From contig BPHJ01000001.1 in the NCBI GenBank assembly GCA_026003475.1, forward strand, positions 256,545-320,544: DNA of 64,000 bases, written 5' to 3'. The notes beneath the pieces were generated by a model. That model did no database searches and was not told the origin of the DNA. It saw nothing but the letters and a program-made list of their open reading frames with translations. Below are positions 9,344-44,416 of this stretch, piece after piece. Position numbers and translations under genes: made by a program. Positions within the stretch are counted from its first letter, which is position 1. Each line of letters opens with the position of its first letter. This DNA is from Candidatus Kapaibacterium sp. Lineage in GTDB: Bacteria > Bacteroidota > Ignavibacteria > Kapaibacteriales > NICIL-2.

Positions 9344-9382
9344 CCTACGTTGACATGTTTCACAAAAGCACGGAGTAGTCTC

Positions 9383-15361: not shown

Positions 15362-15405
15362 GCGATGTCGCTATGGGCAGCGATCGCTCAATGTCATCTG
15401 GTGGG

Positions 15406-16110: not shown

Positions 16111-16279
16111 TGCGGATGCAGAGTGGTGTGTGTGCCCTACAAAAGAGAAGGTGGCGTTCGACAAGTCTGTAGCAAGGCAATAAGTTACGCAAAGCACGAA
16201 TATTTTGGCACGGTTATTTCTTCTGATGTGAAGCAGCCACACTCGTGGTTAGTATGTTTCACATCTCAACCGTGCAGCG

Positions 16280-19200
16280 ATGAAACATGTGTCGTTTTTC
16301 TGTGCAGCCGTTCTTGGGGTTATCTTCACCGTTACGACCCCATCTTCCGCGCAGGTGGGCAGCCTGATCAACTACGGCGCTATCATCAAAGATTCTCTGC
16401 GCCTGGAAAATGCGGCTTCTTTTGTTCGCCTTCCATCGGACGGGTCACTCCGCTGGGGTGAGGACATGGTTGGAATGCTGGTAAGCGCTGGCTTGACAGT
16501 TTCTCGTACATGGACACTACCCGACGAAAGCGGTATCATCCTAACATCGGCGAGAACGTTCAGCGGCGACGTCAGTGGTGTGTACAACAACTTGCAGCTT
16601 GGCAGTGGCGTGGTCGGTACGGCCGAGCTTGCCGATGGTGCGGTGACGGATGCGAAGGTGAACGACGTTTCGTGGACGAAGATCACGGGAGCGCCGACGA
16701 GTTTTCCGCCGAGTGGGAGTGCTGGTGGTGATTTGACGGGGACGTATCCGAACCCGACGATAGCCAACGATGCGGTGACCAGTGCGAAGATTGCCGACGG
16801 GACGATCACCGATGCTGACATCAGCAGCAGTGCGGCGATAGCGGTTAGCAAGCTGGCACCGGGCAGCAATGGGCAAGTGTTGACGACGGTTGGTGGAGTG
16901 CCGACGTGGTCGAGTGTGAGCATCACGGAGACTGATCCGGTGTGGACGGCAGCGGAGCCCAGCTATGGGAACTTGACGCAGAACGATACGGTTTCGGGAA
17001 CGTGGACGTTTAGCAACGCAATCAACGGCAGCATCACAGGTAATGCGGCGACAGCGACGGCGTTGCAGACAGCGCGCAACTTTTCGCTATCGGGCGATGT
17101 GACGGCGCCGGCGGTGTCGTTTGATGGGACGGGGAACGTGACGTTGACGACGACGCTTGCCGATGGTTCAGTGAGCACGGCCAAGCTTGCCGATGGTGCG
17201 GTGACGGATGCGAAGGTGAACGACGTTTCGTGGACGAAGATCACGGGAGCGCCGACGAGTTTTCCGCCGAGTGGGAGTGCTGGTGGTGATTTGACGGGGA
17301 CGTATCCGAACCCGACGATAGCCAACGATGCGGTGACGAGTGCGAAGATTGCCGACGGGACGATCACCGATGCTGACATCAGCAGCAGTGCAGCGATAGC
17401 GGTCAGCAAGCTGGCGGCGGGCAGTGATGGGCAAGTGTTGACGACAGTGGGAGGAGTGCCGACGTGGTCGAGCGTGAGCATCACGGAGACTGATCCGGTG
17501 TGGACGGCGGCGGAGCCGAGTTATGGTAACTTGACGCAGAACGAGACGGTTTCGGGAACGTGGACGTTTAGCAACGCAATCAACGGCAGCATCACAGGTA
17601 ATGCGGCGACAGCGACGGCGTTGCAGACAGCGCGCAACTTTTCGCTATCGGGCGATGTGACGGCGCCGGCGGTGTCGTTTGATGGGACGGGGAACGTGAC
17701 GTTGACGACGACGCTTGCCGATGGTTCAGTGAGCACGGCCAAGCTTGCCGATGGTGCGGTGACGGATGCGAAGGTGAGCGATGTATCGTGGACGAAGATC
17801 ACGGGAGCGCCGACGAGTTTTCCGCCGAGTGGGAGTGCTGGTGGTGATTTGACGGGGACGTATCCGAACCCGACGATAGCCAACGATGCGGTGACGAGTG
17901 CGAAGATTGCCGACGGGACGATCACCGATGCTGACATCAGCAGCAGTGCAGCGATAGCAGTTAGCAAGCTGGCACCGGGCAGCAATGGGCAAGTGTTGAC
18001 GACAGTGGGAGGAGTGCCGACGTGGTCGAGCGTGAGCATCACGGAGACTGATCCGGTGTGGACGGCAGCGGAGCCCAGCTATGGGAACTTGACGCAGAAC
18101 GATACGGTTTCGGGAACGTGGACGTTTAGCAACGCAATCAACGGCAGCATCACAGGTAATGCGGCGACGGCGACGGCATTGCAGACAGCGCGCAACTTTT
18201 CGCTATCGGGCGATGTGACGTCGCCGGCGGTGTCGTTTGATGGGACGGGGAACGTGACGTTGACGACGACGCTTGCCAATGGTTCAGTGAGCACGGCCAA
18301 GCTTGCCGATGGTGCGGTGACGGATGCGAAGGTGAGCGATGTTTCGTGGACGAAGATCACGGGAGCGCCGACGAGTTTTCCGCCGAGTGGGAGTGCTGGT
18401 GGTGATTTGACGGGGACGTATCCGAACCCGACGATTGCCAACGATGCGGTGACGAGTGCGAAGATTGCCGACGGGACGATCACCGATGCTGACATCAGCA
18501 GCAGTGCAGCGATAGCGGTTAGCAAGCTGGCACCGGGCAGCAATGGGCAAGTGTTGACGACGGTGGGAGGAGTGCCGACGTGGTCGAGCGTGAGCATCAC
18601 GGAGACTGATCCGGTGTGGACGGCGGCGGAGCCGAGTTATGGTAACTTGACGCAGAACGAGACGGTTTCGGGAACGTGGACGTTTAGCAACGCAATCAAC
18701 GGCAGCATCACAGGTAATGCGGCGACAGCGACGGCGTTGCAGACAGCGCGCAACTTTTCGCTATCGGGCGATGTGACGGCGCCGGCGGTGTCGTTTGATG
18801 GGACGGGGAACGTGACGTTGACGACGACGCTTGCCAATGGTTCAGTGAGCACGGCCAAGCTTGCCGACGGTGCGGTGACGGATGCGAAGGTGAGCGATGT
18901 ATCGTGGGGGAAGATCACGGGAGCGCCGACGAGTTTTCCGCCGAGTGGGAGTGCTGGTGGTGATTTGACGGGGACGTATCCGAACCCGACGATAGCCAAC
19001 GATGCGGTGACCAGTGCGAAGATTGCCGATGGGACGATCACCGATGCTGACATCAGCAGCAGTGCGGCGATCGCGGTCAGCAAGCTTGCGGCGGGCAGTG
19101 ATGGGCAAATTCTCGTCACAAGTAGCGGTTCACCGCAATGGGCAAATGCAAGCACGCTCAGCGGTAGTTTCTGGGCACTCGGGGGCAATAGTGCTACTGC

Positions 19201-20023
19201 AGACCTGTCCCTGGGGACCACGAGCGATGACGATGTTGTATTCCTCCGGAACAATACTGAGGCGTTCCGTATCGGCTCTGTCAGTGGTAACCCTGTGCTC
19301 AACCTTGGTTCAGCAACTCCAGCGTATCGGATAGACTTGCCGAACAACTCGAACATTGCGATCGGGCGGATACGCGCGCAGGGGTACGCGACGTACTCAT
19401 CACGAGCGTGGAAGGAGGACATTCGTCCCATCGAGGGTGCCCTTGAGAAAGCACTTCGGCTGACGGGGGTACAATACCAGTGGAAGCCGGAGTATGGCGG
19501 CACGCGCGATATTGGGTTTGTGATGGAGGAGGTAGCGGAGGTAGTACCGGAGGTAGTAGACCGGGATCCGAAGACAGGCGAGTATCTTGGGATGGAGTAC
19601 AGTCGGTTGACGGCGTTGCTTGTGGAAGCGCTCAAGGAGGAACACCGCCGCAACGAGGAACTGCGTGCCGAGCTTGTGCAGTTGCGGCAGATGGTCGAGC
19701 AGCTCGCCACACGGCAGCAGGTAACCGCTGGCACATCACATATCACCGTTCGCGTTGAAGGTGACTGGCTTGGGCAAAACGTTCCCAACCCGCACGACGG
19801 AACGACGACGATACCGTGCTACGTTCCTGCAGGAGTTGGAAGCGCGGAGCTTGCCATCAGCGATGCAGCTGGGCGTCTGGTTCGTCGTGTTGTGCTCAGC
19901 GCACGTGATACGTGGACGAACGTAACGGTAGACATGTCACTCCTTGCGTCGGGGACGTACGAATACCAGCTCGTCTTCGACGGTCGTGTCGTTGCCAGCA
20001 AGCAGATGCAGCTGGTCAAGTAG
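16280..20023 (+). CDS. Phage-tail-fibre-like secreted protein (1247 aa): 4.4 tandem 186-aa repeats, then Peptidase-S74 intramolecular chaperone domain, then T9SS C-terminal sorting domain
   Basis: Signal peptide MKHVSFFCAAVLGVIFTVTTPSSAQ. The repeat unit contains …AKLADGAVTDAKVNDVSWTKITG…TSAKIADGTITDADISSSAAIAVSKL…, reminiscent of tail-fibre motifs. The S74 region is SSRAWKEDIRPIEGALEKALRLTGVQYQWKPEYGGTRDIGFVMEEVAEVVPEVV…YLGMEYSRLTALLVEALKEE. The CTD is NVPNPHDGTTTIPCYVPAGVGSAELAISDAAGRLVRRVVLS…SGTYEYQLVFDGRVVASKQMQLVK. Confidence 0.8.
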   Translation: MKHVSFFCAAVLGVIFTVTTPSSAQVGSLINYGAIIKDSLRLENAASFVRLPSDGSLRWGEDMVGMLVSAGLTVSRTWTLPDESGIILTSARTFSGDVSGVYNNLQLGSGVVGTAELADGAVTDAKVNDVSWTKITGAPTSFPPSGSAGGDLTGTYPNPTIANDAVTSAKIADGTITDADISSSAAIAVSKLAPGSNGQVLTTVGGVPTWSSVSITETDPVWTAAEPSYGNLTQNDTVSGTWTFSNAINGSITGNAATATALQTARNFSLSGDVTAPAVSFDGTGNVTLTTTLADGSVSTAKLADGAVTDAKVNDVSWTKITGAPTSFPPSGSAGGDLTGTYPNPTIANDAVTSAKIADGTITDADISSSAAIAVSKLAAGSDGQVLTTVGGVPTWSSVSITETDPVWTAAEPSYGNLTQNETVSGTWTFSNAINGSITGNAATATALQTARNFSLSGDVTAPAVSFDGTGNVTLTTTLADGSVSTAKLADGAVTDAKVSDVSWTKITGAPTSFPPSGSAGGDLTGTYPNPTIANDAVTSAKIADGTITDADISSSAAIAVSKLAPGSNGQVLTTVGGVPTWSSVSITETDPVWTAAEPSYGNLTQNDTVSGTWTFSNAINGSITGNAATATALQTARNFSLSGDVTSPAVSFDGTGNVTLTTTLANGSVSTAKLADGAVTDAKVSDVSWTKITGAPTSFPPSGSAGGDLTGTYPNPTIANDAVTSAKIADGTITDADISSSAAIAVSKLAPGSNGQVLTTVGGVPTWSSVSITETDPVWTAAEPSYGNLTQNETVSGTWTFSNAINGSITGNAATATALQTARNFSLSGDVTAPAVSFDGTGNVTLTTTLANGSVSTAKLADGAVTDAKVSDVSWGKITGAPTSFPPSGSAGGDLTGTYPNPTIANDAVTSAKIADGTITDADISSSAAIAVSKLAAGSDGQILVTSSGSPQWANASTLSGSFWALGGNSATADLSLGTTSDDDVVFLRNNTEAFRIGSVSGNPVLNLGSATPAYRIDLPNNSNIAIGRIRAQGYATYSSRAWKEDIRPIEGALEKALRLTGVQYQWKPEYGGTRDIGFVMEEVAEVVPEVVDRDPKTGEYLGMEYSRLTALLVEALKEEHRRNEELRAELVQLRQMVEQLATRQQVTAGTSHITVRVEGDWLGQNVPNPHDGTTTIPCYVPAGVGSAELAISDAAGRLVRRVVLSARDTWTNVTVDMSLLASGTYEYQLVFDGRVVASKQMQLVK
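16627..19095 (+). repeat. Tandem in-frame repeat array, period 558 bp (186 aa), ~4.4 copies, ~97% nucleotide identity
   Basis: The anchor 'gcttgccgatggtgcggtgacgg' recurs at 16627, 17185, 17743, 18301 and 18859, each exactly 558 nt apart. A few SNPs are distributed mosaically: N/S in AKV(N/S)DVSW, APGSNGQ/AAGSDGQ, QNDTVSG/QNETVSG, TAPAVSF/TSPAVSF. Confidence 0.95.
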
Positions 20024-31198: not shown

Positions 31199-33616
31199 TT
31201 AGAAGCTGTAGCGCAGTCCGAGTGCAAGCTGGAGCCGCTCGACGGTCCAGGTCGCATCACGGAGAACACTCCCGAGCGGGAGGACGTACTGAACTGCCAG
31301 CGTTGCTGTCCACTGTTGGGTGTGAGGTATCGGTGCCGCAAAACCGAATCCGCCGTAGAGTTCGGGAATGAATGCGGCTGTTGCTGCGTCGCGTTGTGCG
31401 GTCATGGTGCCAGGTACGATGGCATCGGCAAGTGGTGAAGGGAGAACAAACCGTCGCTCCAGGTCAAATGCCGAGGATAGCGGGATTGCTCCTTGCAGGC
31501 CACCGCTCAGGTACAGCTCGTAGATACGCGAGCCACTTTGCTTGGTCAAAAGCACCCACTCTGCACCAATTCCGATTGCCAGCATCGGTGCGCGGGGGAT
31601 CAGTCGCGTTTCTGCTTGAACAACAACTAGGGAATCGTTTGCAAGCCGAATGTGTGTGGTGCTGGTATCCGGTGCCGCCAGATACTGTGCAAAAGGTTGC
31701 AAGCTCAGTCGGGCGGTCAAGCGGAGAGCATCGCTTATCGAGTACCCGCCGCTCACACTAATGCCGATCGCTCCACCGTAAGCGTTCGATGTCGGACGGG
31801 GCAGGCGGATTTCGCCGGTTGCACTCAACGAGCTGGTGTGGTAGACAGCATTGGCGGTCCCCCATAGGCCAAGATGCCAAGGTGTCCGTGGTGGGCAAGA
31901 AAATCCGCTGGTGAATTCGAAGCTGCGGCGCTGGTGGTTGTAGCAGTACGTGTAGGTAACCACCGAACGATTCCCCGCGGCATCAATAAGTGCCAGTACA
32001 AGCTGGCCATCCTGTTCCAGATCGAGGGGATGAACGTTGAATTCTGCTTGTGGCTGTCCGCGCTCGATACGGGGGAGATATGCACGCAAGTTCCGCGCCT
32101 GGAGTGGTGTGATGCTATCGAGACCGCTATCGGTGGGGCGATCGTCGCGAACGATCACACGGAGCGCCTTCCCCTGGGATGTGATTTGAAATGCACTCTG
32201 CGGTGGCAGTCGGTCGCGGAGAGTGTCGAGAACAAAAAATGTCTGCCCACCCATCGTGCCATAGGCATCGTAGGCATCGCTACGGTAGCCGAAGCCATAG
32301 GAATACAGTCCGAACGGCTCATCACCGGTGATGGTGTGTGTACCGTAGCTGAGCCGAACATGTGCCACAAAATAGCTGCTGATACCGATGCGCTCAAAGC
32401 TGGTTGCGGGAATGGGGCGGCCGTCCAAGCGGATTGTGCCAATAGCTTCCTCACGCGCGACGATGTTGACGTAATGATCCCATGAACCCTGTACGGGTGT
32501 TGCAATGCGGTAGCGGTCAACGAACTGCTGTGTTGGGGAAATCAGAATCATCATCGGATCACCGACTTCGTCACCATTGCCGAAGCCTTGGGAGTACTGC
32601 GCAACCAGGATTGGCTTATCTGCCGATAGTTGGACGTGGTCTGTGGCATTGGGTTCTTCGTAGTACTCCCCAGCGTTGAGGATAGCAATGAGTGTTTGGT
32701 CTTTGAATACGCGTGTCCGGTCCTGGCTGGCAAGGATGCGATACGTGTAGCGTGAACGTCCGCGGAGCTTGCCGATGTAGTACTGCTTGCCCCAGGCGCT
32801 GATGGGCGGGAGCTGCTCGACAAGGTGGTTGCAGGCTTTGGTGCCCGGCGGGACGTAGGCACAGGTATGCCCGCTGAAGACGGCGATGGGTTTGGTGGCT
32901 TTGATGAGCGTGCCGGTCAGATCGCCCGTGCCTGTGGCGAAGTATTGCGCACGGACTTGATAGACTTGTCCCCGATCGAGGGTGATGGTGTAGCGCTCGT
33001 AGGCGCCGTGCCTATCGGTGGTCGGAGTCGTTGGGGTGATCTCCACTTGCGTATCATCCTCCGTGGCAATGATCGCAAACAGTGGTGCCAAGACTGCCGA
33101 CAACTTGCTGTAACAGAACGCGCGGTATTCAGTGCCAAGCACACTGACGGGAAGGGCAAGGTAGGTGTCGGTTGTCTGGATGCGATGATTGAGTGCATAG
33201 ACGGAGATGGGTGCAGTGCTTTGGATGTGGAGCGCTCGGTTCTTGATGCGGGGGAAGGTATCGAGCTCGGCTTCAGGCGTGATCGGGACGCTACCGATGG
33301 TGCCTCCCTTGATCCGCAACGAATGGCGGAAACCGAGCGCTGGAATTTCGAGCAGCACATCAGCATCGTCTTCGGCCGTGATGAACACCTCCAGCGAGGC
33401 GGGCTCGTAGCTGCCAGGTTTGTTGGGGTCTTCTTCGCGGAAGTTCTTCATGAAGCAGAGCCAAAACTCCGTGCCTTCGGAGTTCAGAATACGATACCGC
33501 GCTGCTGTGTCGGCTCCCTGGGCCCAAAGTCGAGCGCTTACCCCGGAGACAACAACAAGAGTGCAGCCAATCCACGCCAGGATACGGAGTGCGTTTTTCA
33601 CTTCCCAACCACGCAT
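31199..33616 (-). CDS. Secreted protein: IgGFc-binding-protein-N-terminal-like domain (~480 aa) fused to a C-terminal outer-membrane beta-barrel (~300 aa, ends …LGLRYSF)
   Basis: Signal peptide-like N-terminus. Motif GTEFWLCFMKN and ~450-aa homology to the N-terminal half of the 41453..44416 protein. The C-terminal region has alternating hydrophobic beta-strands (AIGISVSGGYSIS, LAIGIGAEWVLL, WTATLAVQYVLPL) and a terminal Phe. Confidence 0.55.
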   Translation of the reverse strand: MRGWEVKNALRILAWIGCTLVVVSGVSARLWAQGADTAARYRILNSEGTEFWLCFMKNFREEDPNKPGSYEPASLEVFITAEDDADVLLEIPALGFRHSLRIKGGTIGSVPITPEAELDTFPRIKNRALHIQSTAPISVYALNHRIQTTDTYLALPVSVLGTEYRAFCYSKLSAVLAPLFAIIATEDDTQVEITPTTPTTDRHGAYERYTITLDRGQVYQVRAQYFATGTGDLTGTLIKATKPIAVFSGHTCAYVPPGTKACNHLVEQLPPISAWGKQYYIGKLRGRSRYTYRILASQDRTRVFKDQTLIAILNAGEYYEEPNATDHVQLSADKPILVAQYSQGFGNGDEVGDPMMILISPTQQFVDRYRIATPVQGSWDHYVNIVAREEAIGTIRLDGRPIPATSFERIGISSYFVAHVRLSYGTHTITGDEPFGLYSYGFGYRSDAYDAYGTMGGQTFFVLDTLRDRLPPQSAFQITSQGKALRVIVRDDRPTDSGLDSITPLQARNLRAYLPRIERGQPQAEFNVHPLDLEQDGQLVLALIDAAGNRSVVTYTYCYNHQRRSFEFTSGFSCPPRTPWHLGLWGTANAVYHTSSLSATGEIRLPRPTSNAYGGAIGISVSGGYSISDALRLTARLSLQPFAQYLAAPDTSTTHIRLANDSLVVVQAETRLIPRAPMLAIGIGAEWVLLTKQSGSRIYELYLSGGLQGAIPLSSAFDLERRFVLPSPLADAIVPGTMTAQRDAATAAFIPELYGGFGFAAPIPHTQQWTATLAVQYVLPLGSVLRDATWTVERLQLALGLRYSF

Positions 33617-34374
33617 GGTGCGATGAAAACGCGGCTATCGGTGCGGAACCAGAGGTGATACACTCCCGCTCCTGTTGCTGTGCGTTCAATCGGCAGTGCG
33701 ATCGTGTGCGAACCTACCGGTGTCGGGGGAAGTTGCCAGCGCCCAACTTCTCGGCCGAGGGGATCGAACAACGCTACTTCTGGTGCTGCTTCGCGATCGA
33801 GCCAGAACGTCGCATTGATGCGGTCTCCGTCAACGGGGTTTGGGAAGACTGGACCAAATGCCTGCTCCTGGCTCAGTTTCAGGGGTGTTGCTGGTTCCAA
33901 AACGAGCGTTCCGCCCTGCGATTGGACTGCGCGCTGGAGACCATTGGCCGTAAGGTCCACGACGGCAAGCACCGCAGGCGAAGTGCCACTCCAAAGGGCA
34001 GTACAGTGTAGGAGCAGTTCGGCTGAATCAAGAGCACCAGTGACAAGAACACGAATGCGAAGTACACCATCGGAGCCGCTGGTGTCGTCGGCGATGATCG
34101 TTGTAACCATGCGTTGCGGAAACCTTGCCGCAACCGAATCTATACTAAGCGCTGCGCGAGTATAGCGCAACTGGACTTGCAGGACGTCGCCCCGCTGCAG
34201 TGGCAGAGCGAGCACGACCGGCGCAACGGCAAGCGTACCGCGAGCAAGTGTGGTGTCGGGTAACCGAACATGCACTTGTGCCTGCAGCAGCAGCGGTGCA
34301 GTGCACAATCCGAAGAGCAGGTAACGCAGCACTATCGGTTGCAAATGGTGAGTGCAAGCAAAAATACGCCCCAC
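33598..34374 (-). CDS. Secreted protein with T9SS C-terminal sorting domain, co-transcribed upstream of the IgGFc/beta-barrel gene
   Basis: C-terminal FPNPVDGDRINATFWLDREAAPEVALFDPLGREVGRWQLP…GAGVYHLWFRTDSRVFI is a type-A CTD. 19-nt overlap with the downstream gene. Confidence 0.5.
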   Translation of the reverse strand: MGRIFACTHHLQPIVLRYLLFGLCTAPLLLQAQVHVRLPDTTLARGTLAVAPVVLALPLQRGDVLQVQLRYTRAALSIDSVAARFPQRMVTTIIADDTSGSDGVLRIRVLVTGALDSAELLLHCTALWSGTSPAVLAVVDLTANGLQRAVQSQGGTLVLEPATPLKLSQEQAFGPVFPNPVDGDRINATFWLDREAAPEVALFDPLGREVGRWQLPPTPVGSHTIALPIERTATGAGVYHLWFRTDSRVFIAPCVVGK

Positions 34375-34527
34375 ACTCGAGGCAGACGCGACACCAATGC
34401 CTCCTGGTGCAAGAATCGTTCCTGGTACTCTATCCCCGCTGCGGCACGGCGTGTCACAACCAAAAACATGACCGCTGGTTTAGGTGTCTCGATCACGATT
34501 TTTGTTTCACCATGGCATTCAGCGACG

Positions 34528-36153
34528 ATGAGAGTGATGGTGGTTGGTCTTCTGCTTGTGGTTGTCCTGGCTGCACCGGTGGGTGCGCAGTGGATACGTG
34601 CGACTGGATCTCTGGGTACGTCGGCGGAGGTGTATCGCGCGTTTGGCTCACCGGCCCGACTACCGTCGGAAACCTACCGTGCTGTTGGGCGACTCAGCAT
34701 CATTCTTGCTGACCAGGTCGAGCTTCCCTGCGAGCTGTACCTCAACAGCGGGCAGATTGGTTTTCAGCAGCCATTCAACCAGTTCGGCGTTACACCGCGT
34801 ATCGGAAGCTGGCTTCAACTGTTCGGTGGATGGTATTCGACCAGGGTTTCCGATTACACGTTCGGCGATTTGCGTATTCTCGGTGGCGGTATCGAGCTGA
34901 GCCCCGGTGCATTTCGGCTGGCGATCCATTACGGCTACACCAGACAGGGTCGCGATCCGGATACGATGCAAGCACTCGTTGGTGAATATCGCCGCCGTGT
35001 CATTGTTGGCAAATTTGGCTACGAAGGGCAAGACGGCAACTTTATTACAGTCCAAGCGATGGCTTCCCAAGACGAGCCTGGCAGTATTGGCCGTGATAGC
35101 CTGACGCCGCAACCGCAGGCTAATGCGGTTTTTTCGATTGCCGCTGGTCTTGGGGCGCTCGATGGTGCAATCGGCTTTCGTGGCGAAGCTGCGGCAGGAC
35201 TGTTTACCAACAACACGCGAGCAGGGCTCGATAGCGCTCTTGCCGAGAATATTCCTTCTTGGTTCCAGCAGCTTATACCGACCAACGCAACCTCTAACCT
35301 CGATGCTGCAGCACGGCTCAATCTCAGCATTACCCCTTCGGCAACATGGGGACTTGTCCTCGATGGACAGTGGGTCGGACCGGGATTTGTCACGCTGGGG
35401 TATGCCCAGCTTCTCAACGATGTGTTCGATCTCAATGCTTCTCCCTACGTGCGATTGTTCGATGGCAAGCTTTCGCTCCGTGCAACTGTTGGGCGACGGA
35501 CGAACAACCTCCGCCGTACCCGAATTGCGACGCTCGAACGCTGGATGACCAATGCTGGCGCCAATTGGCAACTGAGCAATGCTGTCGGGCTTGATGTGCA
35601 GTTCGGTCAGTACACGATGCGTTCGGACCACACCAATGATAGCCTCCGTGCAGACAACACGACTCAGACAGTGACAGTCTCGCCCACCTGGCGACTGGGA
35701 ACCGGCAGTGGGGAGCATTTTTTCACAGCATCGTTGACCTACCAGCGCACCCAGGACAATAACCGTGTCTCCGGTCAGTACGGGAACAACTCCATGGCCA
35801 GTGCAACAGTATCTCATAGCGTGCAATTGCCCTCAAAGCTTGGGCTCAGCACTGCCCTCAACTATAGTCGTGTGCAAACATACCTGCAGAACATCAGCAT
35901 GGGCACATTGAGCGAATCGGTAACCTATCCCTTCGCGCAGCAATGGAATGCCAGAGCTACTCTGGGGTTGAACGTTACCAACTCGACGGTAACTACACTG
36001 CAACTCCTGTTCCGCGCTGCATTGACCTATACCTTCGAGCAATGGGGCAGCCTCACACTTCAGCTCATGAACAACACCTTCGACCTGACCGGACAGCAGG
36101 GCAACCGATACACTGAGCTTTTCGGCAGCCTGCAGTATGCTCTAAATTTCTAA
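34528..36153 (+). CDS. Outer-membrane beta-barrel protein (porin-like), unknown family
   Basis: Signal peptide MRVMVVGLLLVVVLAAPVGAQ. Ends …SLQYALNF, the C-terminal Phe OMP signature. Alternating beta-strand pattern throughout. Divergent from the 34374 gene. Confidence 0.5.
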   Translation: MRVMVVGLLLVVVLAAPVGAQWIRATGSLGTSAEVYRAFGSPARLPSETYRAVGRLSIILADQVELPCELYLNSGQIGFQQPFNQFGVTPRIGSWLQLFGGWYSTRVSDYTFGDLRILGGGIELSPGAFRLAIHYGYTRQGRDPDTMQALVGEYRRRVIVGKFGYEGQDGNFITVQAMASQDEPGSIGRDSLTPQPQANAVFSIAAGLGALDGAIGFRGEAAAGLFTNNTRAGLDSALAENIPSWFQQLIPTNATSNLDAAARLNLSITPSATWGLVLDGQWVGPGFVTLGYAQLLNDVFDLNASPYVRLFDGKLSLRATVGRRTNNLRRTRIATLERWMTNAGANWQLSNAVGLDVQFGQYTMRSDHTNDSLRADNTTQTVTVSPTWRLGTGSGEHFFTASLTYQRTQDNNRVSGQYGNNSMASATVSHSVQLPSKLGLSTALNYSRVQTYLQNISMGTLSESVTYPFAQQWNARATLGLNVTNSTVTTLQLLFRAALTYTFEQWGSLTLQLMNNTFDLTGQQGNRYTELFGSLQYALNF

Positions 36154-36379
36154 CGGTTGCTTAATTCGAGCTGGACTAAGGGCAGAGCATTCCTGGTGAC
36201 CGTGGATTTGCAGTCGTGTCGGCAGTTATGCATACCCCGATGTTCCCTCCATAAAGGATGTTGCGTGTTGGTAATCCTTCCGTAACTGTTCGATAACTGC
36301 CCAGCAATGCCCGCCTAACGTTGGAGGGGGAGTTTCGCACCTGGTTCGTGTGTGGTTGTTTCATCTCAATCAGGTTGCG

Positions 36380-39232
36380 ATGACGCTCAGAATACTTATG
36401 TGTGTGGTTGCTGCATGGAGTGTTGCGATTGGTGCTACTAACGACGGCATCATTACCGGATCGGTCCGCGAGACGGCCTCGGGGGAGCCGTTGCGAGGTG
36501 CAACGATCTTGGTTGATGGGACAAAGCGTGGTGCGATCAGCGATCCCAAAGGCAATTTTACGATCAAGAACATTGCTGCAGGGACCTACGCACTGACAGT
36601 TCGCTACATCGGCTACGAAACCAAGCGTATCGCTGGTGTGGTGGTCGAGCCTGGGAAGACGACGCGCGTGTCGGTGGTTCTCGATCGGGATCGGCAGCTC
36701 GTTGCGCGCGATGTCGTCGTGGAAGCGCGGCGGACCAACGAAACACAAGCGGCACTGCTTGCCCAACGGAAAAACAGTGCACAGGTCACCGATGGAATCA
36801 GCACGGAGGAGATTACCAAACTGCCCGACAACGATGCTGGTCAAGCGCTCCGACGCGTGTCGGGGGTGACGCTGGCAAGTGACAAATTCTTAGTCGTCCG
36901 CGGCACGGGTGACCGCTACAACAATGCGATGCTCAATGGAATTCCGTTGACCTCAACCGAACCGGATAAAAAAGCCTTCAGCTACGATCTGTTCCCCTCC
37001 AGCCTCCTTGAAAGCGCAACGATTACCAAGACGTTCACGCCAGACCTACCGGGCAACTTCACCGGCGGGCTGGTGCAACTGAGCACGATCGAGTTTCCCT
37101 CCCAGTCGTCGCTAAAGGTAAGCTTTTCCTCCTCGATCAACGATAACGCATTTCTGCAGCCGAACCGCTACATCAGTGCTCCAGGAGGGCGATGGGATTG
37201 GCTTGGCTTCGACGACGGAACGCGATCGTCCCTTCCCGCAGGTATGCCCACCGATCGGCGCCAGATGAGCGCATTGCTCAGTGCTGTTCGGAATCCATAC
37301 GACACAACAGGCGCACGCCAGCGTTGGACGCAGCTGAGCAAATCCTTCAATAACCAAAATTGGCAGCAGCGCCAACGAACGCTTGCAATGCCGAATAGCT
37401 CGATTTCACTGGCCTATACCGACGTTGCCAGTATTGCCGGAACCGAGCTCGGAATCGTTGCCAGTTTGGTTTATTCCAATTCCTGGAGTATCTCCACGCT
37501 GGAGCGCAACGGTATTCTCGCCGATCGTTCGACCTGGTTTCGTACCAGTGGCTACAATCCATCCCGCACGACGACACTCGGCGGAATGCTCAGTCTTTCG
37601 CTGCGGGCCAGCCAGTACTCAACGCTGAGCGTGCAAACAGTCTTCAACCACAGTGCCGACGAGGATGTTGTCGTTCTCAACGGGCAGGATTACGTGCGGA
37701 TCTTCGATACCAAGCAGCTTTCGATGCAGTATGTCGAAAAGCGGTTGCTGTCGGTAATGGTGTCGGGAGACCACACATTGCCCATGCTCAGTAATGCAGC
37801 GCTCGATTGGAAGGTTGGATACACCTCGACCGGGCGAGAAGAGCCCGACTTTCGTCGCTTCCGTTTTGCACGTCAGACCCCAAATGACGAGTCCTACGTG
37901 GAGCCCTACGCGTCCGACATCATCAGCTTTACTCCTCTTGGTCAAGGAGACGGCGTTCGAGCAGGACGGTTTTTCTCCCAGCTCGATGAACGTGCCTACA
38001 CTGGAGCATTCAATCTCCAGCTTCCGTTGGGTAGCGTCAAACTCAAAACCGGAATGCTCACCGAGCATCGGCAGCGGCAGTTTACGGCACGGTCGTTTAC
38101 GTACGTCCCCGGTCCAGAATTTTCGCTCGACTACGCAGTCTTTACTCTTCCCGATTCGGTGCAGTGGGCTGATCCATCGGGAATCTTTCGCCCTGAGAAC
38201 TTTGGACCGCAGGGGATCGGCATATCGGAGGATTCACGGCTTGCTGATGCGTACTCAGCGCGTGAACGGCTCTATGCCGGGTACATTATGGCTGACTACT
38301 CGTTCGACCAGCTTGGCCTGCCGCTGCGCATTATCGGCGGTGTGCGCTACGAGGACAACCGTCAGCAGCTAAACAGCTACGACTTGAGCGATCGGCCCGT
38401 TACCGTGGATGTCTATACGCGCGACTGGTTGCCAGCATTGTCGGTCGTGGTGGGCCTGACGCCAACAATGAACCTGCGCTTGGCGGCATCACAGACAGTT
38501 GCGCGCCCATCCCTCCGAGAGTTTGCACCATTCGCGTTCTACGATTTTTCGACGCAATCGCAGGTAATGGGCAATCCGAATTTGACACGCGCACTCATTG
38601 CCAATGGGGATGTGCGGTGGGAGTGGTTCCCATCTCCAGGCGAGGTGCTCTCGGCAGGGGTGTTCGTCAAGCGCTTCCTGCATGCGATTGAAGAGACCAT
38701 CTACCTGGAACAGCAGGAAATTGCCCGAACTTTCCGTAACGCCGAAGGTCCGGCGCTCAACTATGGCGCAGAAATCGAGCTCCGCAAGCGATTGGATGTT
38801 CTGGGATCGTGGGGACAGCATCTGACGCTCTCGCTCAACTATGCACGTATCATTTCGCAAGTGGAGGTGACGCAAGGTGGGCAGCTCGATCGCCGCCCAA
38901 TGTGGGGGCAGTCCCCGTACACATTCAACGCACTACTGACAGCAGCTATTCCAGAGTTGGATGCAACCGTGAGCATTGGCTATAACGTGTTCGGTCGGCG
39001 AATTGTGCTCGTCGGGCTGCGCAATGCCTACCAGTTCGACGATCCACACACGTATGAACTGCCGCGGGATGTGGTGGACCTCACGGTGACCAAAGCTTTC
39101 GGCGCATTCCAAGTGCGACTTTCCATTCGCGACCTGCTCAACCAACCCCTGCGGTGGGAGCAGGGTGGAACGATTGTGCAATCAACTATTCGTGGACGTT
39201 CCCTCGGAATTGGTCTGAGCTATCGGCTCTGA
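36380..39232 (+). CDS. TonB-dependent receptor with N-terminal carboxypeptidase-regulatory-like (CarbopepD_reg) domain
   Basis: GIITGSVRE…GNFTIKNIAAGTYALTVRYIGYET is the CarbopepD_reg domain. Plug domain …LVVRGTGDRYNNAMLNGIPL…. C-terminal beta-barrel ending GIGLSYRL. Confidence 0.85.
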   Translation: MTLRILMCVVAAWSVAIGATNDGIITGSVRETASGEPLRGATILVDGTKRGAISDPKGNFTIKNIAAGTYALTVRYIGYETKRIAGVVVEPGKTTRVSVVLDRDRQLVARDVVVEARRTNETQAALLAQRKNSAQVTDGISTEEITKLPDNDAGQALRRVSGVTLASDKFLVVRGTGDRYNNAMLNGIPLTSTEPDKKAFSYDLFPSSLLESATITKTFTPDLPGNFTGGLVQLSTIEFPSQSSLKVSFSSSINDNAFLQPNRYISAPGGRWDWLGFDDGTRSSLPAGMPTDRRQMSALLSAVRNPYDTTGARQRWTQLSKSFNNQNWQQRQRTLAMPNSSISLAYTDVASIAGTELGIVASLVYSNSWSISTLERNGILADRSTWFRTSGYNPSRTTTLGGMLSLSLRASQYSTLSVQTVFNHSADEDVVVLNGQDYVRIFDTKQLSMQYVEKRLLSVMVSGDHTLPMLSNAALDWKVGYTSTGREEPDFRRFRFARQTPNDESYVEPYASDIISFTPLGQGDGVRAGRFFSQLDERAYTGAFNLQLPLGSVKLKTGMLTEHRQRQFTARSFTYVPGPEFSLDYAVFTLPDSVQWADPSGIFRPENFGPQGIGISEDSRLADAYSARERLYAGYIMADYSFDQLGLPLRIIGGVRYEDNRQQLNSYDLSDRPVTVDVYTRDWLPALSVVVGLTPTMNLRLAASQTVARPSLREFAPFAFYDFSTQSQVMGNPNLTRALIANGDVRWEWFPSPGEVLSAGVFVKRFLHAIEETIYLEQQEIARTFRNAEGPALNYGAEIELRKRLDVLGSWGQHLTLSLNYARIISQVEVTQGGQLDRRPMWGQSPYTFNALLTAAIPELDATVSIGYNVFGRRIVLVGLRNAYQFDDPHTYELPRDVVDLTVTKAFGAFQVRLSIRDLLNQPLRWEQGGTIVQSTIRGRSLGIGLSYRL

Positions 39233-39259
39233 GCTTGTTCAACTATCTTGGTGCGAGTT

Positions 39260-41278
39260 ATGCATCGTTTGCTTGTGTTTGCATGTATTGTCTCGGTGAT
39301 TGCCTCGGCGCAGCAGATCAGCGTCGTCCTGACAAAGCCTGCTGGCGGCGAAACCTTTCGTCCGGGACGCTCTGAAGACTTTGTCTGGGATACCAGTGCC
39401 TACCCTGGCGTGTATCCAACTTGGCGCTTCCAGTTTGCAACCTCACCGACGGGACCGTGGACGGACCTGCCGGGTGCAACAGCCGTCAAAGATTCCGCTT
39501 CGCGTCGTGGCCGTTTTACCGGTGGCTTTCGCGTGCCAGCGGTTGCAACAACCAACGGTTATGTGCGCATGGTGCTCGTCAAGCCCGATGGTACGCTCGA
39601 CGAGACTGTCACCAGCCGGAACCAACAACCCTTTACCATTGTGCAGCCGCAAGCAATACAGCCCGATTCAGTTCTGCGCACGCCAATCACAGGGCGCGTG
39701 CAGCTTTCGGCACGCAAAATCTATGGCCTCGATGGATATGTGTTTGTTGATGATGGTGGTGTGTTGGTCATCGAGCCAGGCACGCGAATCGTTGGCGATA
39801 CGGTAGGCCAAAATTCTGCGTTATGTGTCAATCGCGGGGGCAAAATCATCGCCGAGGGCACGCGCCAGCGTCCCATCGTGATGACCTCGTCGGCACCGCC
39901 AGGGCAGCGTGCACCGGGAGATTGGGGTGGCTTGCTCATTTGCGGCCGAGCACGCACCAATCACCCGGGCGGTCAGGCAGCACTCGAAGGTGGCATCGCC
40001 GATGCAAACCAAGTGCGTGGATGGTTCGGTGGCACCGATGACGATGATTCCAGCGGCGTTGTTCGGTACGTGCGGATTGAATTTGCTGGCATTGCGGCAG
40101 CACCAAACAGCGAACTCAATTCGCTCACGCTCGCGGGAGTTGGGCGCCGAACGGTCATTGAATATGTTCAGTGCAGCTATGGCAACGATGATTCCTTCGA
40201 ATGGTTCGGCGGGAGTGTTGGCGGTCGGTATTTGATTTCGACTGGCGGCCTCGACGATGACTTCGACACGGACAACGGTTGGAGTGGGCGTGTGCAATTT
40301 GGTCTTGCCCACCGATTCCGAGCGCGCGCGGATCAATCCATCTCCCAAGCCTTCGAATCCGACAACGACGCCAGTGGATCGTTCAATCAGCCCCTCACCA
40401 GCGGGGTCTTCAGCAACATGACCTTGATCGGTCCGGTGCAGGATACTGCCTGGACGCCAGGCACCGGTACATCACCGAACTCATACAACACCCGATTTGG
40501 TGCTGCTGCCCAGATTCGACGGAATTCGCGTTTGAGCATCATCAACAGTGTCTTCATCGGATGGCCGCGCGGAGTTGAAATTGCTGGCAGCAACACCATG
40601 CTTGCTGCTGCTGGTGATTCGCTGCTGGTTCGGAACAACTCGTTCTATGGCATCAAGGGAACACTGCTCAACTTTGCTGGAGGAAATCCTCCCCAGGGCA
40701 TGACAACCTCGTGGATCGAGCAACCGCAGTTTGCGAACATCTTCGACAAACGCTCACCGGATTTAGCACTGCTGACCAATCCGTTCGCGACCGATCCGAG
40801 CTTCAATCCACAGCCGATGGCAAACTCACCACTGGCATCGCAGCAAACAAGCTACACAAGCACGGCACTGGTTGACTTGAGTGGATTTGTTCAAGTCAAC
40901 TATCGAGGCGCGTTTGCACCATATCCAACCGAGCGATGGGATTTGCCCTGGGCGGAATATGATCCGGTCAACGCCGACTACACCCTCTCGGTTCGCAATG
41001 CCGATGCAGAGCCACAACTGTTGCTGCAGGTGCTCCCCAATCCAGTGAGTGCGTCTGCAGTGCTTCGGTACACGCTACCTACAGACGACGTGGTCACACT
41101 GCGAGTGACCGATCTTGCTGGCCGTGAAGTTGTGCGCTACCTGGTTTCGCTTCCGCAGCACGCCAGTGTGTACGAAGTTCCGTTCACCTCCGAATGGCTT
41201 CCCAGTGGGACGTACCTGGTGCAGCTTATCACGCAGCGCAGTGGGAGTGTTGGCGCGCCGGTCATAGTTGTGCATTGA
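39260..41278 (+). CDS. Secreted beta-helix-like protein with T9SS C-terminal sorting domain, downstream of the TonB-dependent receptor
   Basis: Signal peptide MHRLLVFACIVSVIASAQQ. Asp-rich segments GTDDDDSSGV and GGLDDDFDTDNGWSG. C-terminal LPNPVSASAVLRYTLPTDDVVTLRVTDLAGREVV…SGTYLVQLITQRSG is a CTD. Confidence 0.5.
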   Translation: MHRLLVFACIVSVIASAQQISVVLTKPAGGETFRPGRSEDFVWDTSAYPGVYPTWRFQFATSPTGPWTDLPGATAVKDSASRRGRFTGGFRVPAVATTNGYVRMVLVKPDGTLDETVTSRNQQPFTIVQPQAIQPDSVLRTPITGRVQLSARKIYGLDGYVFVDDGGVLVIEPGTRIVGDTVGQNSALCVNRGGKIIAEGTRQRPIVMTSSAPPGQRAPGDWGGLLICGRARTNHPGGQAALEGGIADANQVRGWFGGTDDDDSSGVVRYVRIEFAGIAAAPNSELNSLTLAGVGRRTVIEYVQCSYGNDDSFEWFGGSVGGRYLISTGGLDDDFDTDNGWSGRVQFGLAHRFRARADQSISQAFESDNDASGSFNQPLTSGVFSNMTLIGPVQDTAWTPGTGTSPNSYNTRFGAAAQIRRNSRLSIINSVFIGWPRGVEIAGSNTMLAAAGDSLLVRNNSFYGIKGTLLNFAGGNPPQGMTTSWIEQPQFANIFDKRSPDLALLTNPFATDPSFNPQPMANSPLASQQTSYTSTALVDLSGFVQVNYRGAFAPYPTERWDLPWAEYDPVNADYTLSVRNADAEPQLLLQVLPNPVSASAVLRYTLPTDDVVTLRVTDLAGREVVRYLVSLPQHASVYEVPFTSEWLPSGTYLVQLITQRSGSVGAPVIVVH

Positions 41279-41370: not shown

Positions 41371-41452
41371 ATGCGAAACCATCGGTACTGGTACTGTGTT
41401 ACTGTCGTGAGCTGGTATTTTTACATCCGTCTGCTCCATGATGGAGGCTGTA

Positions 41453-44416
41453 ATGAAAAGAGTGCTTCTTCTCATAGTTCTTGCGGTGGCGCTGGCAGCG
41501 CAAGAAGTCCCCGACAGCAAAGGGAGAGATTTTTGGTTCTGCTTCATGCCGAATTACCACAACGACGGGATGAACAGTAGCAATGCACGTCAGAGAGACT
41601 CACTCTACATTTACATCGCTGCTGACGAGCCAACAAATGTTCGGCTGGAGTTTACTCCCTACGATGGCCGGCCGCCGCAGGTTATCAATGCACGGATTGA
41701 CAATCCAGCCCAGATGCTTACCATCCCCCTGTCGTATGCTGGAGTCGAGCTCATCGGGGTAAACATGGGTGCCGGAGATGTTTCGATGCCATGGGAGCGT
41801 CACACGCAGCGCCCTGTTCGGTACACCTTCCACCTCGTCAGTGATCACGATGTGACGGTGTACGCGCTCAACCGAGCCGAAACGACCAGTGATGCATTCT
41901 TGGTGTTGCCAACCGATGCGCTCGGGAGAGACTACTATGTTATGAGCTACAACACCGATGCCTATCCTAACGGAGACAACACACCCTCTCAGTTTGCAGT
42001 TGTTGCGACGGAGGATTCGACCGTTGTCGAATTTGTGCGCGTTACCTCGCCGACCACCGATGGACCCATCAGTCGCATTCTGCTCAATCGTGGTGAAGCA
42101 TACCTTGTTCAATCAAGGACGACCAGTGAGCAGTACGACCTGACGGGAACGCGGATCAAGTCGAACCGTCCGATTGCAGTCTTCGGCGGGCATCAGCGAG
42201 CACGGGTACCGCTGTCAACACGAGAATACATGGCTTCCCGCGATTGCTTGATTGAACAAATTCCTCCGTCTGCAACATGGGGACGCTCAGCTTTTCTGGT
42301 GCCATACATGAATCCAGATGATGGGAGCGATCCAGAGGGCGGCCAAGGTGATCGGTACCGCATCCTCGCAGCACGCGACAGCACGGTGATCTACATTGAT
42401 AGCATACCGATTGTGACGCTCAATGCTGGTCAGTACTACGAAGGACCGCTTTCATCGGCGCATACTGTCCATGCAAATCGCCCCATTCTGGTTGCGCAGT
42501 TTCGGGAGACCTCAACGCCTCTACCGGGCAGTATTCTGCTCGTTGGCGATCCTTTCATGATGATCATGCCACCGGCAGAGCAGTTCATGTCGGGATACCG
42601 CTTCATCTGTCCGCTATCCTACCAGCGCTCGGTCAACGAGCCCCGCGGCAGGATTGAAGAAGTGTACCTGTACCACTACGTCACTATTGTCGTGCACGAT
42701 ACCGCCAAGGCATCGCTCGTGCTCGATGGCAGACCGGTGACGACAACATTTTGGCCAATACCCAAAAGCAAGTACGTCTATACGCAAGTCCGCCTCGAAG
42801 CTGGTGTGCACACAGTCTCGGCCAATGCTCCCATCGGCATTTCGGTGTACGGGTACGGCTATGCTGATTCCTACGGCTACGTTGGTGGCATGAGTTTCCG
42901 GCGATACGATTTCGAGCCGCCGAAAATTTCGTCGCTGCCACAATGTCCACCTTACCGCTTGGTTGTCTACGACACGTTGCCCAGCGATAGCCGTGTGGAC
43001 GTCGTGCGCATCATCGAGGATTCGACCGAGAACGTTGTCTGGGAAATTGTCCGACAAACGATGCTCCCACAAGATTCGGTTGAAGTACGGATTGCACTCC
43101 GCGATCCCTATTCTGATGGGGTGATTACGATTGTTGCCCAGGATGCCGAACAGTTTATCACCCGCGCCAGAGTGCCCATTCCTGGCATGACACTCCGCGT
43201 GGTTGACAGCGATGGCACCACCAACCGATTCCCGCGTGTGTATTCGTTCGTGAGCGCAACCCAGCGCAACTCTTGCTTTCGAGTGCCGATCACGAATGTG
43301 GGGAACTATCCGCAGACTATTCTTCGGGCTTGGTGCCGCATTGGCGACGTTGTTGCCCAGATACAGCCCCCGTTGACGGTTGTGCCAAGGGATACAGCCG
43401 AATTCCAGGTCTGCTACCGTACCACACGTCCAGCCACCATTGCCGATACCCTCTGGCTGGAAACTCCCTGCGGACAATATGCCGCTGCGATCTTCCACGT
43501 TGAGTTTATCTACGACACACTCCCACCGCGAATCCTCCGGAATCGTCAGCCCTGCCCATCAGTGGACATCATCACCGCCCAAGAGCACGGCTATTCGCAG
43601 ACGGGCATTGCTGGGGTTACGGTGCTCGATTCGTTCAATATTGTGTTGACGGTCGCTTCGTCGCCGGAAAACATTGCCCTTGCAGAAGAGCAGACCATTC
43701 GTGTTGCGCAGCGTGACTGGCGGCTCGATGGTTGGTACACGATCGAAGTCGCTGACTCGGTGGGGAATCGCTCGCTCGTGGAGGGCGTTTTCCTGGGGCA
43801 TACGGTCATGATTGCCAATCGCGATTCGCTCGAGGCGCGCCAATCCTTTGTCGGCAGAAGCAACCAGTTTCTGTGCGACACCATCGAGCTCTACAACTTC
43901 GGACGGTTTCCGAAGACCTTTGAGCGGTTAGTCAGTCGAGGCGTTGAGATGGCTGTTCCGCCAGCGTTTGTGCCGCTGATGCTTGGTCCGGGTGAGCGGG
44001 TACGTGTACCGGTTTGCGCGTTGATGCCGTTTTATAGCGCAGGTACTGCCAACATCTATCGCGATACGCTGGAACTGCTGGTTGGTTGCTACCGCCGTGC
44101 TCTGCCGGTTGAGGTGCACGTGCTTGCTACCGCGTACGCTGCGGAAAGCTCCTGCGGCGTCCTGGTCAGCAGCGGTGGCGATACGACGACGGTTCGCCTG
44201 GAGCAGCAGGGAAGCAGTGTTCGCGCCGATCTTGGTGTTGCTGCCGATTGGCAGGGTGCACTCTATTCGATGGCCGGGCAATGCATGATGAACTTTCGCC
44301 AGCAAGGGACGGTGCTCTCCTTCGATCTTGGCGCAGTCCCAGCAGGAGCATATTGGCTGGTGGTGCACAGCACTGTTGGGCTTGTGCGTGTGCCAATCCT
44401 TTGGACTGGTCAGTAA
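41453..44416 (+). CDS. Large secreted protein with IgGFc-binding-protein-N-terminal-like domain and T9SS C-terminal sorting domain
   Basis: Signal peptide MKRVLLLIVLAVALAAQ. Motif GRDFWFCFMPN. Paralogous over ~450 aa to the 31199..33616 protein. C-terminal …LYSMAGQCMMNFRQQGTVLSFDLGAVPAGAYWLVVHSTVGLVRVPI is CTD-like. Confidence 0.55.
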   Translation: MKRVLLLIVLAVALAAQEVPDSKGRDFWFCFMPNYHNDGMNSSNARQRDSLYIYIAADEPTNVRLEFTPYDGRPPQVINARIDNPAQMLTIPLSYAGVELIGVNMGAGDVSMPWERHTQRPVRYTFHLVSDHDVTVYALNRAETTSDAFLVLPTDALGRDYYVMSYNTDAYPNGDNTPSQFAVVATEDSTVVEFVRVTSPTTDGPISRILLNRGEAYLVQSRTTSEQYDLTGTRIKSNRPIAVFGGHQRARVPLSTREYMASRDCLIEQIPPSATWGRSAFLVPYMNPDDGSDPEGGQGDRYRILAARDSTVIYIDSIPIVTLNAGQYYEGPLSSAHTVHANRPILVAQFRETSTPLPGSILLVGDPFMMIMPPAEQFMSGYRFICPLSYQRSVNEPRGRIEEVYLYHYVTIVVHDTAKASLVLDGRPVTTTFWPIPKSKYVYTQVRLEAGVHTVSANAPIGISVYGYGYADSYGYVGGMSFRRYDFEPPKISSLPQCPPYRLVVYDTLPSDSRVDVVRIIEDSTENVVWEIVRQTMLPQDSVEVRIALRDPYSDGVITIVAQDAEQFITRARVPIPGMTLRVVDSDGTTNRFPRVYSFVSATQRNSCFRVPITNVGNYPQTILRAWCRIGDVVAQIQPPLTVVPRDTAEFQVCYRTTRPATIADTLWLETPCGQYAAAIFHVEFIYDTLPPRILRNRQPCPSVDIITAQEHGYSQTGIAGVTVLDSFNIVLTVASSPENIALAEEQTIRVAQRDWRLDGWYTIEVADSVGNRSLVEGVFLGHTVMIANRDSLEARQSFVGRSNQFLCDTIELYNFGRFPKTFERLVSRGVEMAVPPAFVPLMLGPGERVRVPVCALMPFYSAGTANIYRDTLELLVGCYRRALPVEVHVLATAYAAESSCGVLVSSGGDTTTVRLEQQGSSVRADLGVAADWQGALYSMAGQCMMNFRQQGTVLSFDLGAVPAGAYWLVVHSTVGLVRVPILWTGQ

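Follow-up and report, generated by a model that had tools for sequence, protein, structure and literature searches.

Does a bacterial protein in which a large soluble region precedes a C-terminal outer-membrane barrel have to carry that region to the cell surface? This question is raised by the open reading frame (ORF) at 31199..33616 on the minus strand of a 64,000-nucleotide stretch of Candidatus Kapaibacterium sp. (contig BPHJ01000001.1, positions 256,545 to 320,544), which we will call the window and to which unprefixed nucleotide positions refer. An earlier interpretation, which we will call the sequence-only reading, took the N-terminal part of the product for a surface passenger held by its own fused barrel, as in autotransporters, while a paralogue in the same window would be anchored through a type IX secretion system (T9SS) C-terminal domain (CTD). 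We favor, with a rough probability of 55%, a different answer, in which the ORF encodes an outer-membrane protein whose 8-stranded OmpA-type barrel serves as an anchor and not as an export pore, and in which this protein is paired with a T9SS partner that might dock on the barrel.

The ORF is a real gene of 805 codons plus a stop, and its product (hereafter the target) is identical to a public sequence of Candidatus Kapaibacterium sp. encoded on a contig of 2.16 Mb (P0001, 'hypothetical protein KatS3mg039_0257'). From the N- to the C-terminus, the target consists of a signal peptide, a module belonging to the Pfam family PF17517 (IgGFc_binding), an immunoglobulin (Ig)-like domain, a short cysteine-containing linker and a beta-barrel, all of them encoded on the minus strand. 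The Sec signal peptide, as read from the sequence, covers residues ~1-32 (33521..33616; ...ARLWA/QG) and is by its appearance of the signal-peptidase-I type, with no usable lipobox; AlphaFold2 (AF2) models a helix at residues 2-33, and the homologues have equivalent hydrophobic N-termini. It is followed by an all-beta module at residues ~43-457 (32246..33490), delimited by Pfam, alignment and AF2, in which PF17517 occupies residues 150-441 (32294..33169). This family is the sole match of a Pfam scan of the target (E 8e-81, 272 bits for a cut-off of 25.6 bits), and the match spans the full profile from 1 to 297. The Ig-like beta-sandwich domain (residues ~466-560, 31937..32221), delimited by the alignments with the paralogue and the homologues and by AF2, carries Cys558 at its end, directly ahead of the linker (residues 561-579, 31880..31936), in which Cys574 is invariant among the homologues; a disulfide may join these two cysteines. 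The barrel fills the rest of the protein (residues 580-805, 31202..31879). The AF2 model of the whole target has a pLDDT of 82.8, a scan with NCBIfam returned nothing meaningful, and neither Pfam nor NCBIfam finds a T9SS CTD in the target itself.

The first step towards an answer is the identity of the barrel. The sequence-only reading had announced a C-terminal outer-membrane barrel of ~300 amino acids ending in LGLRYSF. The ending is indeed as announced (...LQLALGLRYSF), hydrophobic residues alternate along the final strand before its aromatic end, as in an outer-membrane insertion signal, and the barrel is borne out by fold, homologues and profile, while its size has to be reduced to ~230 amino acids (residues ~575-805), residues ~466-560 of the longer region being the Ig-like domain and not barrel. 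When modeled on its own (residues 572-805), the barrel reaches a pLDDT of 91.9 and a pTM of 0.82, and it displays extended hairpins and a terminal aromatic residue. In fold comparisons, it scores highest against the N-terminal domain of OprF (score 17.2, 129 of 135 amino acids, 2.0 Å), NspA (17.0, 147 of 155, 2.1 Å), OmpA (16.6, 132 of 137, 2.4 Å), a designed 8-stranded barrel (17.4, 115 of 120, 1.6 Å) and Legionella porin III (17.7, 181 of 224, 3.0 Å). The scores fall to 8.8 for the 10-stranded OmpT and OpcA (165 and 149 amino acids, 4.4 and 3.9 Å) and to 8.4 for the 12-stranded KdgM (92 amino acids, 6.2 Å). Foldseek agrees with this picture, and in its ranking the autotransporter barrels are marginal (NalP at rank 34 with a TMq of 0.29, EspP with a TMq of 0.14). 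The AF2 model contains 11 DSSP strands, which a mean-field covariation analysis merges into 8 long ones; this is a rough and weak support, as the scores of single pairs were swamped by gap artefacts and the anti-diagonal sums alone were usable.

The homologues connect this fold to a known family. The Pfam scan of the target's own C-terminus gives no barrel match, and PDB sequence and family-profile searches gave no significant match for either the barrel or the N-terminal module. When the scan was extended to 36 aligned family members at E <= 0.1, PF13568 (OMP_b-brl_2) was found in 8 of them (best E 5.8e-8), PF13505 in 5 and OmpA_membrane in 2, and three of eight tested C-termini score above the PF13568 gathering threshold (30.9, 36.5 and 27.4 bits for a threshold of 27). 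A profile search of 1.84 billion representative proteins with the barrel retrieved 1030 relatives, in which the 227-position barrel domain is found in three contexts: it forms the C-terminal end of PF17517 proteins that are mostly ~780-810 amino acids long, it occupies residues ~20-250 of OmpA-family proteins of ~650-730 amino acids that combine PF13568 with a C-terminal PF00691 domain, and it makes up stand-alone proteins of ~250-280 amino acids. The OmpA-family and stand-alone proteins are matched with E values down to ~1e-22. A word-indexed search with the 246-amino-acid C-terminus found nothing, even though the full protein is in the same database; this is explained by the limits of the word prefilter and is no sign of an orphan domain. 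The OmpA-like homology of the target barrel is thus transitive, through homologues, profile search and structure model, and on these grounds we place it, as a closed antiparallel barrel, with the 8-stranded barrels of PF13568/PF13505.

The barrel of the target nevertheless differs from its relatives. The OmpA-family proteins of Ignavibacteria and Bacteroidota (e.g., P0168) share with it the same 227-position, 8-stranded barrel and the terminal aromatic residue, but they carry this PF13568/PF13505 barrel at the N-terminus and a peptidoglycan-binding PF00691 domain at the C-terminus, so that the order is reversed in the target, where the PF17517 and Ig-like module comes first. The target also has a polar motif of its own, APD650...Q667-E, located on the long hairpin between barrel strands 3 and 4 and, in the topology that we propose, near the tip of this hairpin. 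Within the fused family, the D, Q and E of this motif show a conservation of at least 80%, whereas neither the OmpA-family barrels nor the stand-alone ones have them. In two related genomes, an OmpA-family protein with a PF13568 or PF13505 barrel and an OmpA domain also adjoins the operon (L001:3495-5477, minus strand; L005:8467-10410, plus strand). In the window, no other ORF carries the barrel of the target. Two other identities of this C-terminal region were tried and rejected. That it might merely be a divergent CTD is ruled out by its length, its fold and its Pfam matches. In the Hop or 'type Vf' arrangement, the first barrel strand is N-terminal and the passenger is inserted between strands 1 and 2; this interrupted architecture is ruled out too, the 8 strands being contiguous in the C-terminal 230 amino acids and aligning end to end with the stand-alone barrels.

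The architecture just described is that of a whole family. In a scan with one genome per species, 262 genomes encode a relative of the target, and the best 80 loci all match through the C-terminal region, nearly all of them to residue ~800-805. A gene-fusion or assembly artefact is thereby excluded, the full-length architecture being present in 80/80 of the loci kept. The 120 homologues listed are ~750-841 amino acids long with 87-100% query coverage and are labeled Kapabacteria, Ignavibacteria, Chlorobi or Bacteroidota; the related genomes are all metagenome-assembled and these taxon labels are unreliable. The 36-homologue alignment is conserved from end to end, with a mean column identity of 51%, and PF17517 is found in all 36 proteins. 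Most of them end in F or W, and the others terminate with L, Y or I or extend by one or two residues. The target family is therefore a widely conserved outer-membrane protein of Ignavibacteria/Kapabacteria.

The genuine link of the target to the T9SS lies in a separate, adjacent gene, which the sequence-only reading did not note. This partner gene, on the minus strand at 33598..34374 and delimited by ORF, NCBIfam and profile evidence, is upstream of the target and overlaps its start by 19 nucleotides; it encodes 258 amino acids, in which a signal peptide is followed by a cohesin-like domain and, at residues 176-248 (minus strand, 33631..33849), by a putative T9SS type A CTD that TIGR04183 matches weakly, with 18.7 bits (E 1.2e-3) for a cut-off of 23. 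A similar gene encoding ~260-300 amino acids occupies the equivalent place in four other genomes, and two of these copies (L001 and L003) are above the CTD cut-off. We then surveyed 85 fetched loci. In 81/81 evaluable ones, the target gene has a co-oriented partner homologue upstream of it, the four without partner beginning within ~330 nucleotides of a contig end. The two genes typically overlap by 4 nucleotides, or the partner lies within ~40 nucleotides of the start of the target. The exceptions are L001, L002, L024 and L019, where the partner is ~1.4-1.5 kb upstream, and L041, with a gap of 338 nucleotides; in L001, L002 and L024, the space is filled by an extra gene encoding PF17517 only. 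Among 76 partners, TIGR04183 is matched by 59 (E <= 1e-3, best E 5e-9), PF18962 by 23 and the cohesin family PF00963 by a single one (E 1.4e-4). Against the PDB, the partner profile finds cohesins from Clostridium thermocellum and other species, several of them from CipA and ScaB (E 2e-4 to 4e-2; 2e-4 to 2e-3 for the best C. thermocellum matches), as well as a solved T9SS CTD. Together, the CTD matches and the cohesin-like profile matches indicate, at the level of the family, that the partner belongs to the type A cargo of the T9SS and is a small protein with a putative cohesin-like interaction domain.

A paralogue of the N-terminal module gives the other connection to the T9SS. It is encoded on the plus strand at 41438..44416, is 992 amino acids long and, according to Pfam, BLASTP and its family, continues from the N-terminal module through Ig-like domains to a T9SS type A CTD of divergent sequence. 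The paralogy with the first ~480 amino acids of the target, noticed in the sequence-only reading, was confirmed by BLASTP (33% identity over ~516 columns, E 4e-66), as was the motif they have in common (EGTEFWLCFMKN in the target and KGRDFWFCFMPN in the paralogue), and they also share the Ig-like domain that occupies residues ~466-560 of the target. The same reading called the paralogue a T9SS-CTD protein. This holds by homology, while the CTD in its own sequence falls short of the threshold (TIGR04183, 15.2 bits, E 0.016) and an hhalign comparison of its C-terminus with the partner CTDs was not significant. The members of its family are ~1000 amino acids long, about half of the 120 homologues listed match PF18962, and the name 'T9SS type A sorting domain-containing protein' is given to several, so that its status as a T9SS type A cargo is supported through the CTDs of its family. 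This cargo family occurs in the same lineages as the target family, and its N-terminal module and next Ig-like domain are homologous to those of the target. It ends, however, in further Ig-like domains and a T9SS CTD, whereas the target ends in a membrane barrel; with such different C-termini, the predicted destinations of the two proteins differ.

What PF17517 itself does can be approached through its conservation. In the 36-homologue alignment, H250, C252, C262, N263, E267, Q268, D349, D353, H381, H427 and D450 of the N-terminal module are invariant, and these polar and cysteine residues hint at a ligand-binding or catalytic site. PF17517 also contains a near-invariant (V/I)GDPMM (target residues 348-356, ~32549..32575) that holds an Asp-Pro bond and recalls the autocatalytic GDPH cleavage motif of the VWD domains of FCGBP and mucins. 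FCGBP is a eukaryotic secreted mucus protein, and its N-terminal domain in animals, the source of the PF17517 name, belongs to the same Pfam family as the target (272 bits). No functional inference carries over from this likeness. The public name 'IgGFc-binding protein' is misleading, and we prefer to describe the family as PF17517 proteins that are anchored in the outer membrane and have a T9SS cargo as partner. Foldseek with the full target model against the PDB returned barrel matches only and no solved PF17517 relative, and our literature searches found no paper treating bacterial PF17517, the gene pair or this system in Ignavibacteria.

We can now return to the side of the membrane on which the module resides. 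The OmpA_C domain binds peptidoglycan, which places the C-terminus of the barrel of OmpA-family proteins in the periplasm, and an even number of strands places the N-terminus of the barrel there as well. As the same barrel is found at the N-terminus of OmpA-family proteins, both ends of the target barrel should be periplasmic, and the PF17517 and Ig-like module of ~570 amino acids is predicted to face the periplasm. Only ~6 residues separate the invariant Cys574 from the first barrel strand, and AF2 gives short strand and coil for residues 560-580, with no helix in the linker. The lumen of 8-stranded OmpA-like barrels is packed with side chains; such a lumen and a short linker devoid of helix argue against a linker that crosses the barrel. 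In some Kapaibacterium genomes, the extra PF17517-only gene that sits between the partner and the barrel gene (L001:6642-7982 and L002:6074-7504) encodes 446-476 amino acids with a signal peptide and an N-terminal PF17517 module, without CTD or barrel. No route is known by which such a copy would cross the outer membrane, which fits a periplasmic module.

These elements lead to the mechanism that we favor. The target would be exported by Sec, as its signal peptide suggests, and its barrel would be inserted by the beta-barrel assembly machinery (BAM) through the C-terminal aromatic signal, by homology with other barrels. As both barrel ends should be periplasmic and an 8-stranded lumen cannot let a polypeptide through, the PF17517 and Ig-like module, 570 amino acids in all, would be held directly beneath the outer membrane, on its periplasmic side. 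The target would then work as an obligate pair with the upstream partner: the pairing of the genes is observed at every evaluable locus, and a joint function of their products is what it suggests. The partner, for its part, would leave the cell through the type IX system, given its CTD, and could dock on the long extracellular hairpins that bear the family-specific motif. We favor this docking step, speculative as it is, because the APD650...Q667-E motif is kept in the fused family and is absent from the homologous barrels. Periplasmic module, barrel and surface cargo might then form one assembly across the outer membrane, comparable to the PorE-PorP-PG1035 system of the Porphyromonas gingivalis T9SS, in which a protein of the periplasm, a barrel of the outer membrane and a cargo at the surface are joined (PMC9143113). 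The logic of a periplasmic module, a barrel and a T9SS surface protein, with barrel and cargo cognate to one another, is common to PorE-PorP-PG1035 and SprF-SprB (PMC9143113). The system proposed here would be built from unrelated parts and would differ from them in several respects: the target barrel belongs to another family than PorP, being 8-stranded and OmpA-like with no PF11751 match, its periplasmic module, a fusion with the barrel, bears no relation to PorE, the CTD of the adjacent cargo is of type A and not of type B, and the interaction of the two proteins is putative.

Several points weigh against this mechanism. The orientation of the module is derived from homology and strand parity and stays a prediction. 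The paralogous PF17517 module is a T9SS cargo and hence extracellular, and the module of the target might by analogy be extracellular too. The contact between partner and barrel is a speculative proposal drawn from the hairpin motif. The partner in the window has a CTD below the curated cut-off (18.7 versus 23 bits). Finally, the mechanism gives PF17517 no biochemical role, and the function of the target is putative.

Among the other explanations, the one closest to ours sees the target as an outer-membrane-tethered periplasmic protein, either enzyme-like or binding the envelope, whose adjacency to the CTD gene would reflect co-regulation or a shared pathway and not a physical complex. It uses the same topology inference as the trans-membrane pair; the many invariant polar residues of PF17517 would suit a catalytic or ligand-binding site, and the binding of the partner to the barrel is putative. 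We still consider it unlikely, since the stop/start overlap or near-abutment at most loci suggests stoichiometric co-production, and a conserved family-specific motif on a predicted extracellular hairpin wants explaining.

The autotransporter-like model of the sequence-only reading, in which the PF17517 module is a surface passenger exported or anchored by the fused barrel, has an apparent strength in its domain order. In type Va autotransporters (NalP, EspP) as in the target, a single chain begins with a signal peptide, continues with a large soluble region and ends in an outer-membrane barrel; moreover, the paralogous module is a T9SS cargo and so extracellular, and Ig-like stalks are typically found in surface proteins. 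The likeness does not extend to the barrel. In type Va autotransporters, the PF03797 barrel has 12 strands and contains a helical linker in its pore, whereas the target has 8 strands and ~6 residues between Cys574 and the first of them, with no linker helix predicted; NalP and EspP are weak Foldseek matches (TMq 0.14-0.29), far from a strong fold match, and there is no match in sequence, no autotransporter family being found among the Pfam matches of the 36 members. The homologous OmpA-family barrels have periplasmic termini, and some operons contain the module copy with a signal peptide only. We thus regard the model as doubtful, and with it the idea of one passenger anchored at the surface by two different strategies, the module being predicted periplasmic from the barrel that it shares with the OmpA family. 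A PorP/SprF-type anchor fused to its own cargo, also raised in the sequence-only reading, has in its favor that the target gene is always beside a T9SS cargo gene and that PorP-like barrels do anchor their cognate cargo (PMC9143113), but it is highly improbable, since PorP_SprF (PF11751) is absent from the families that the 36 members match at E <= 0.1, the 8-stranded fold is that of OmpA-like barrels, the CTD of the adjacent cargo is of type A (TIGR04183 in 59/76) and not of type B, and the fused N-terminal module lacks a CTD and so is not itself T9SS cargo. In our assessment, the target is neither an autotransporter nor a PorP/SprF protein, nor does it belong to the T9SS cargo itself.

Two bolder versions of the trans-membrane pair can be considered. 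In the first, which we put forward only tentatively and think improbable as a whole, the operon would encode an undescribed envelope module, conserved in the classes concerned, in which the cohesin-like T9SS protein would be held at the surface by the hairpins of its dedicated 8-stranded barrel, and not by A-LPS or a PorP-like barrel, and PF17517 would couple it to a periplasmic partner or activity. In the second, more radical one, the partner and the T9SS may help to move the PF17517 module to the surface in spite of the 8-stranded barrel.

The rest of the window shows a setting in which T9SS cargo is common, with above-threshold CTDs at 11..2326, 16280..20023 and 39248..41278. Divergent from the operon, the ORF at 34270..36153 (plus strand) encodes 627 amino acids, with an internal signal-peptide-like start (MRVMVVGLLLVVVLAAPVGAQ) and the ending ...LQYALNF. 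It has no significant Pfam or NCBIfam match (DUF2490 only, E 0.21), and its product is probably another, larger outer-membrane barrel. It is followed on the same strand by a TonB-dependent-receptor-like protein (36350..39232, CarboxypepD_reg and Plug) and, directly after it, by a 676-amino-acid protein with an above-threshold T9SS type A CTD (39248..41278), both of them just upstream of the 992-amino-acid PF17517 paralogue. Further away, also on the plus strand, lie a 2003-amino-acid ORF without Pfam match (9350..15361), a 258-amino-acid protein with a Peptidase_S74 (endosialidase chaperone) domain that follows it (15334..16110), and a 1247-amino-acid protein with DUF5907 repeats, Peptidase_S74 and a T9SS CTD (16280..20023). 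This set (9350..20023) represents tail-fibre-like surface proteins that would be routed through the T9SS. The window also contains dnaA (7181..8668, plus strand; Bac_DnaA, DnaA_N and a C-terminal helix-turn-helix domain) and a ParA/Mrp-like ATPase (4534..5634), and it probably adjoins the chromosomal replication origin.

OmpA-type 8-stranded barrels are known as N-terminal anchors placed ahead of periplasmic domains, and we know of no earlier description of such a barrel C-terminal to a 570-amino-acid module. The target family represents a new domain arrangement, in which a known anchor barrel is found in an unusual C-terminal place and together with a T9SS-cargo partner, and this arrangement is conserved in Ignavibacteria/Kapabacteria. 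It also bears on our initial question: a C-terminal barrel behind a large domain need not mean an autotransporter. The invariant pairing offers a first approach to the function of bacterial PF17517 domains, and it points to a way in which some type A cargo might be placed at the surface outside Bacteroidia. If true, a cargo held by the hairpins of a barrel would add a new type of cargo anchor to the T9SS, or a new connector across the outer membrane. As it stands, the target holds no mechanistic surprise; what it provides is a testable hypothesis on the organization of the cell surface in a poorly studied lineage.

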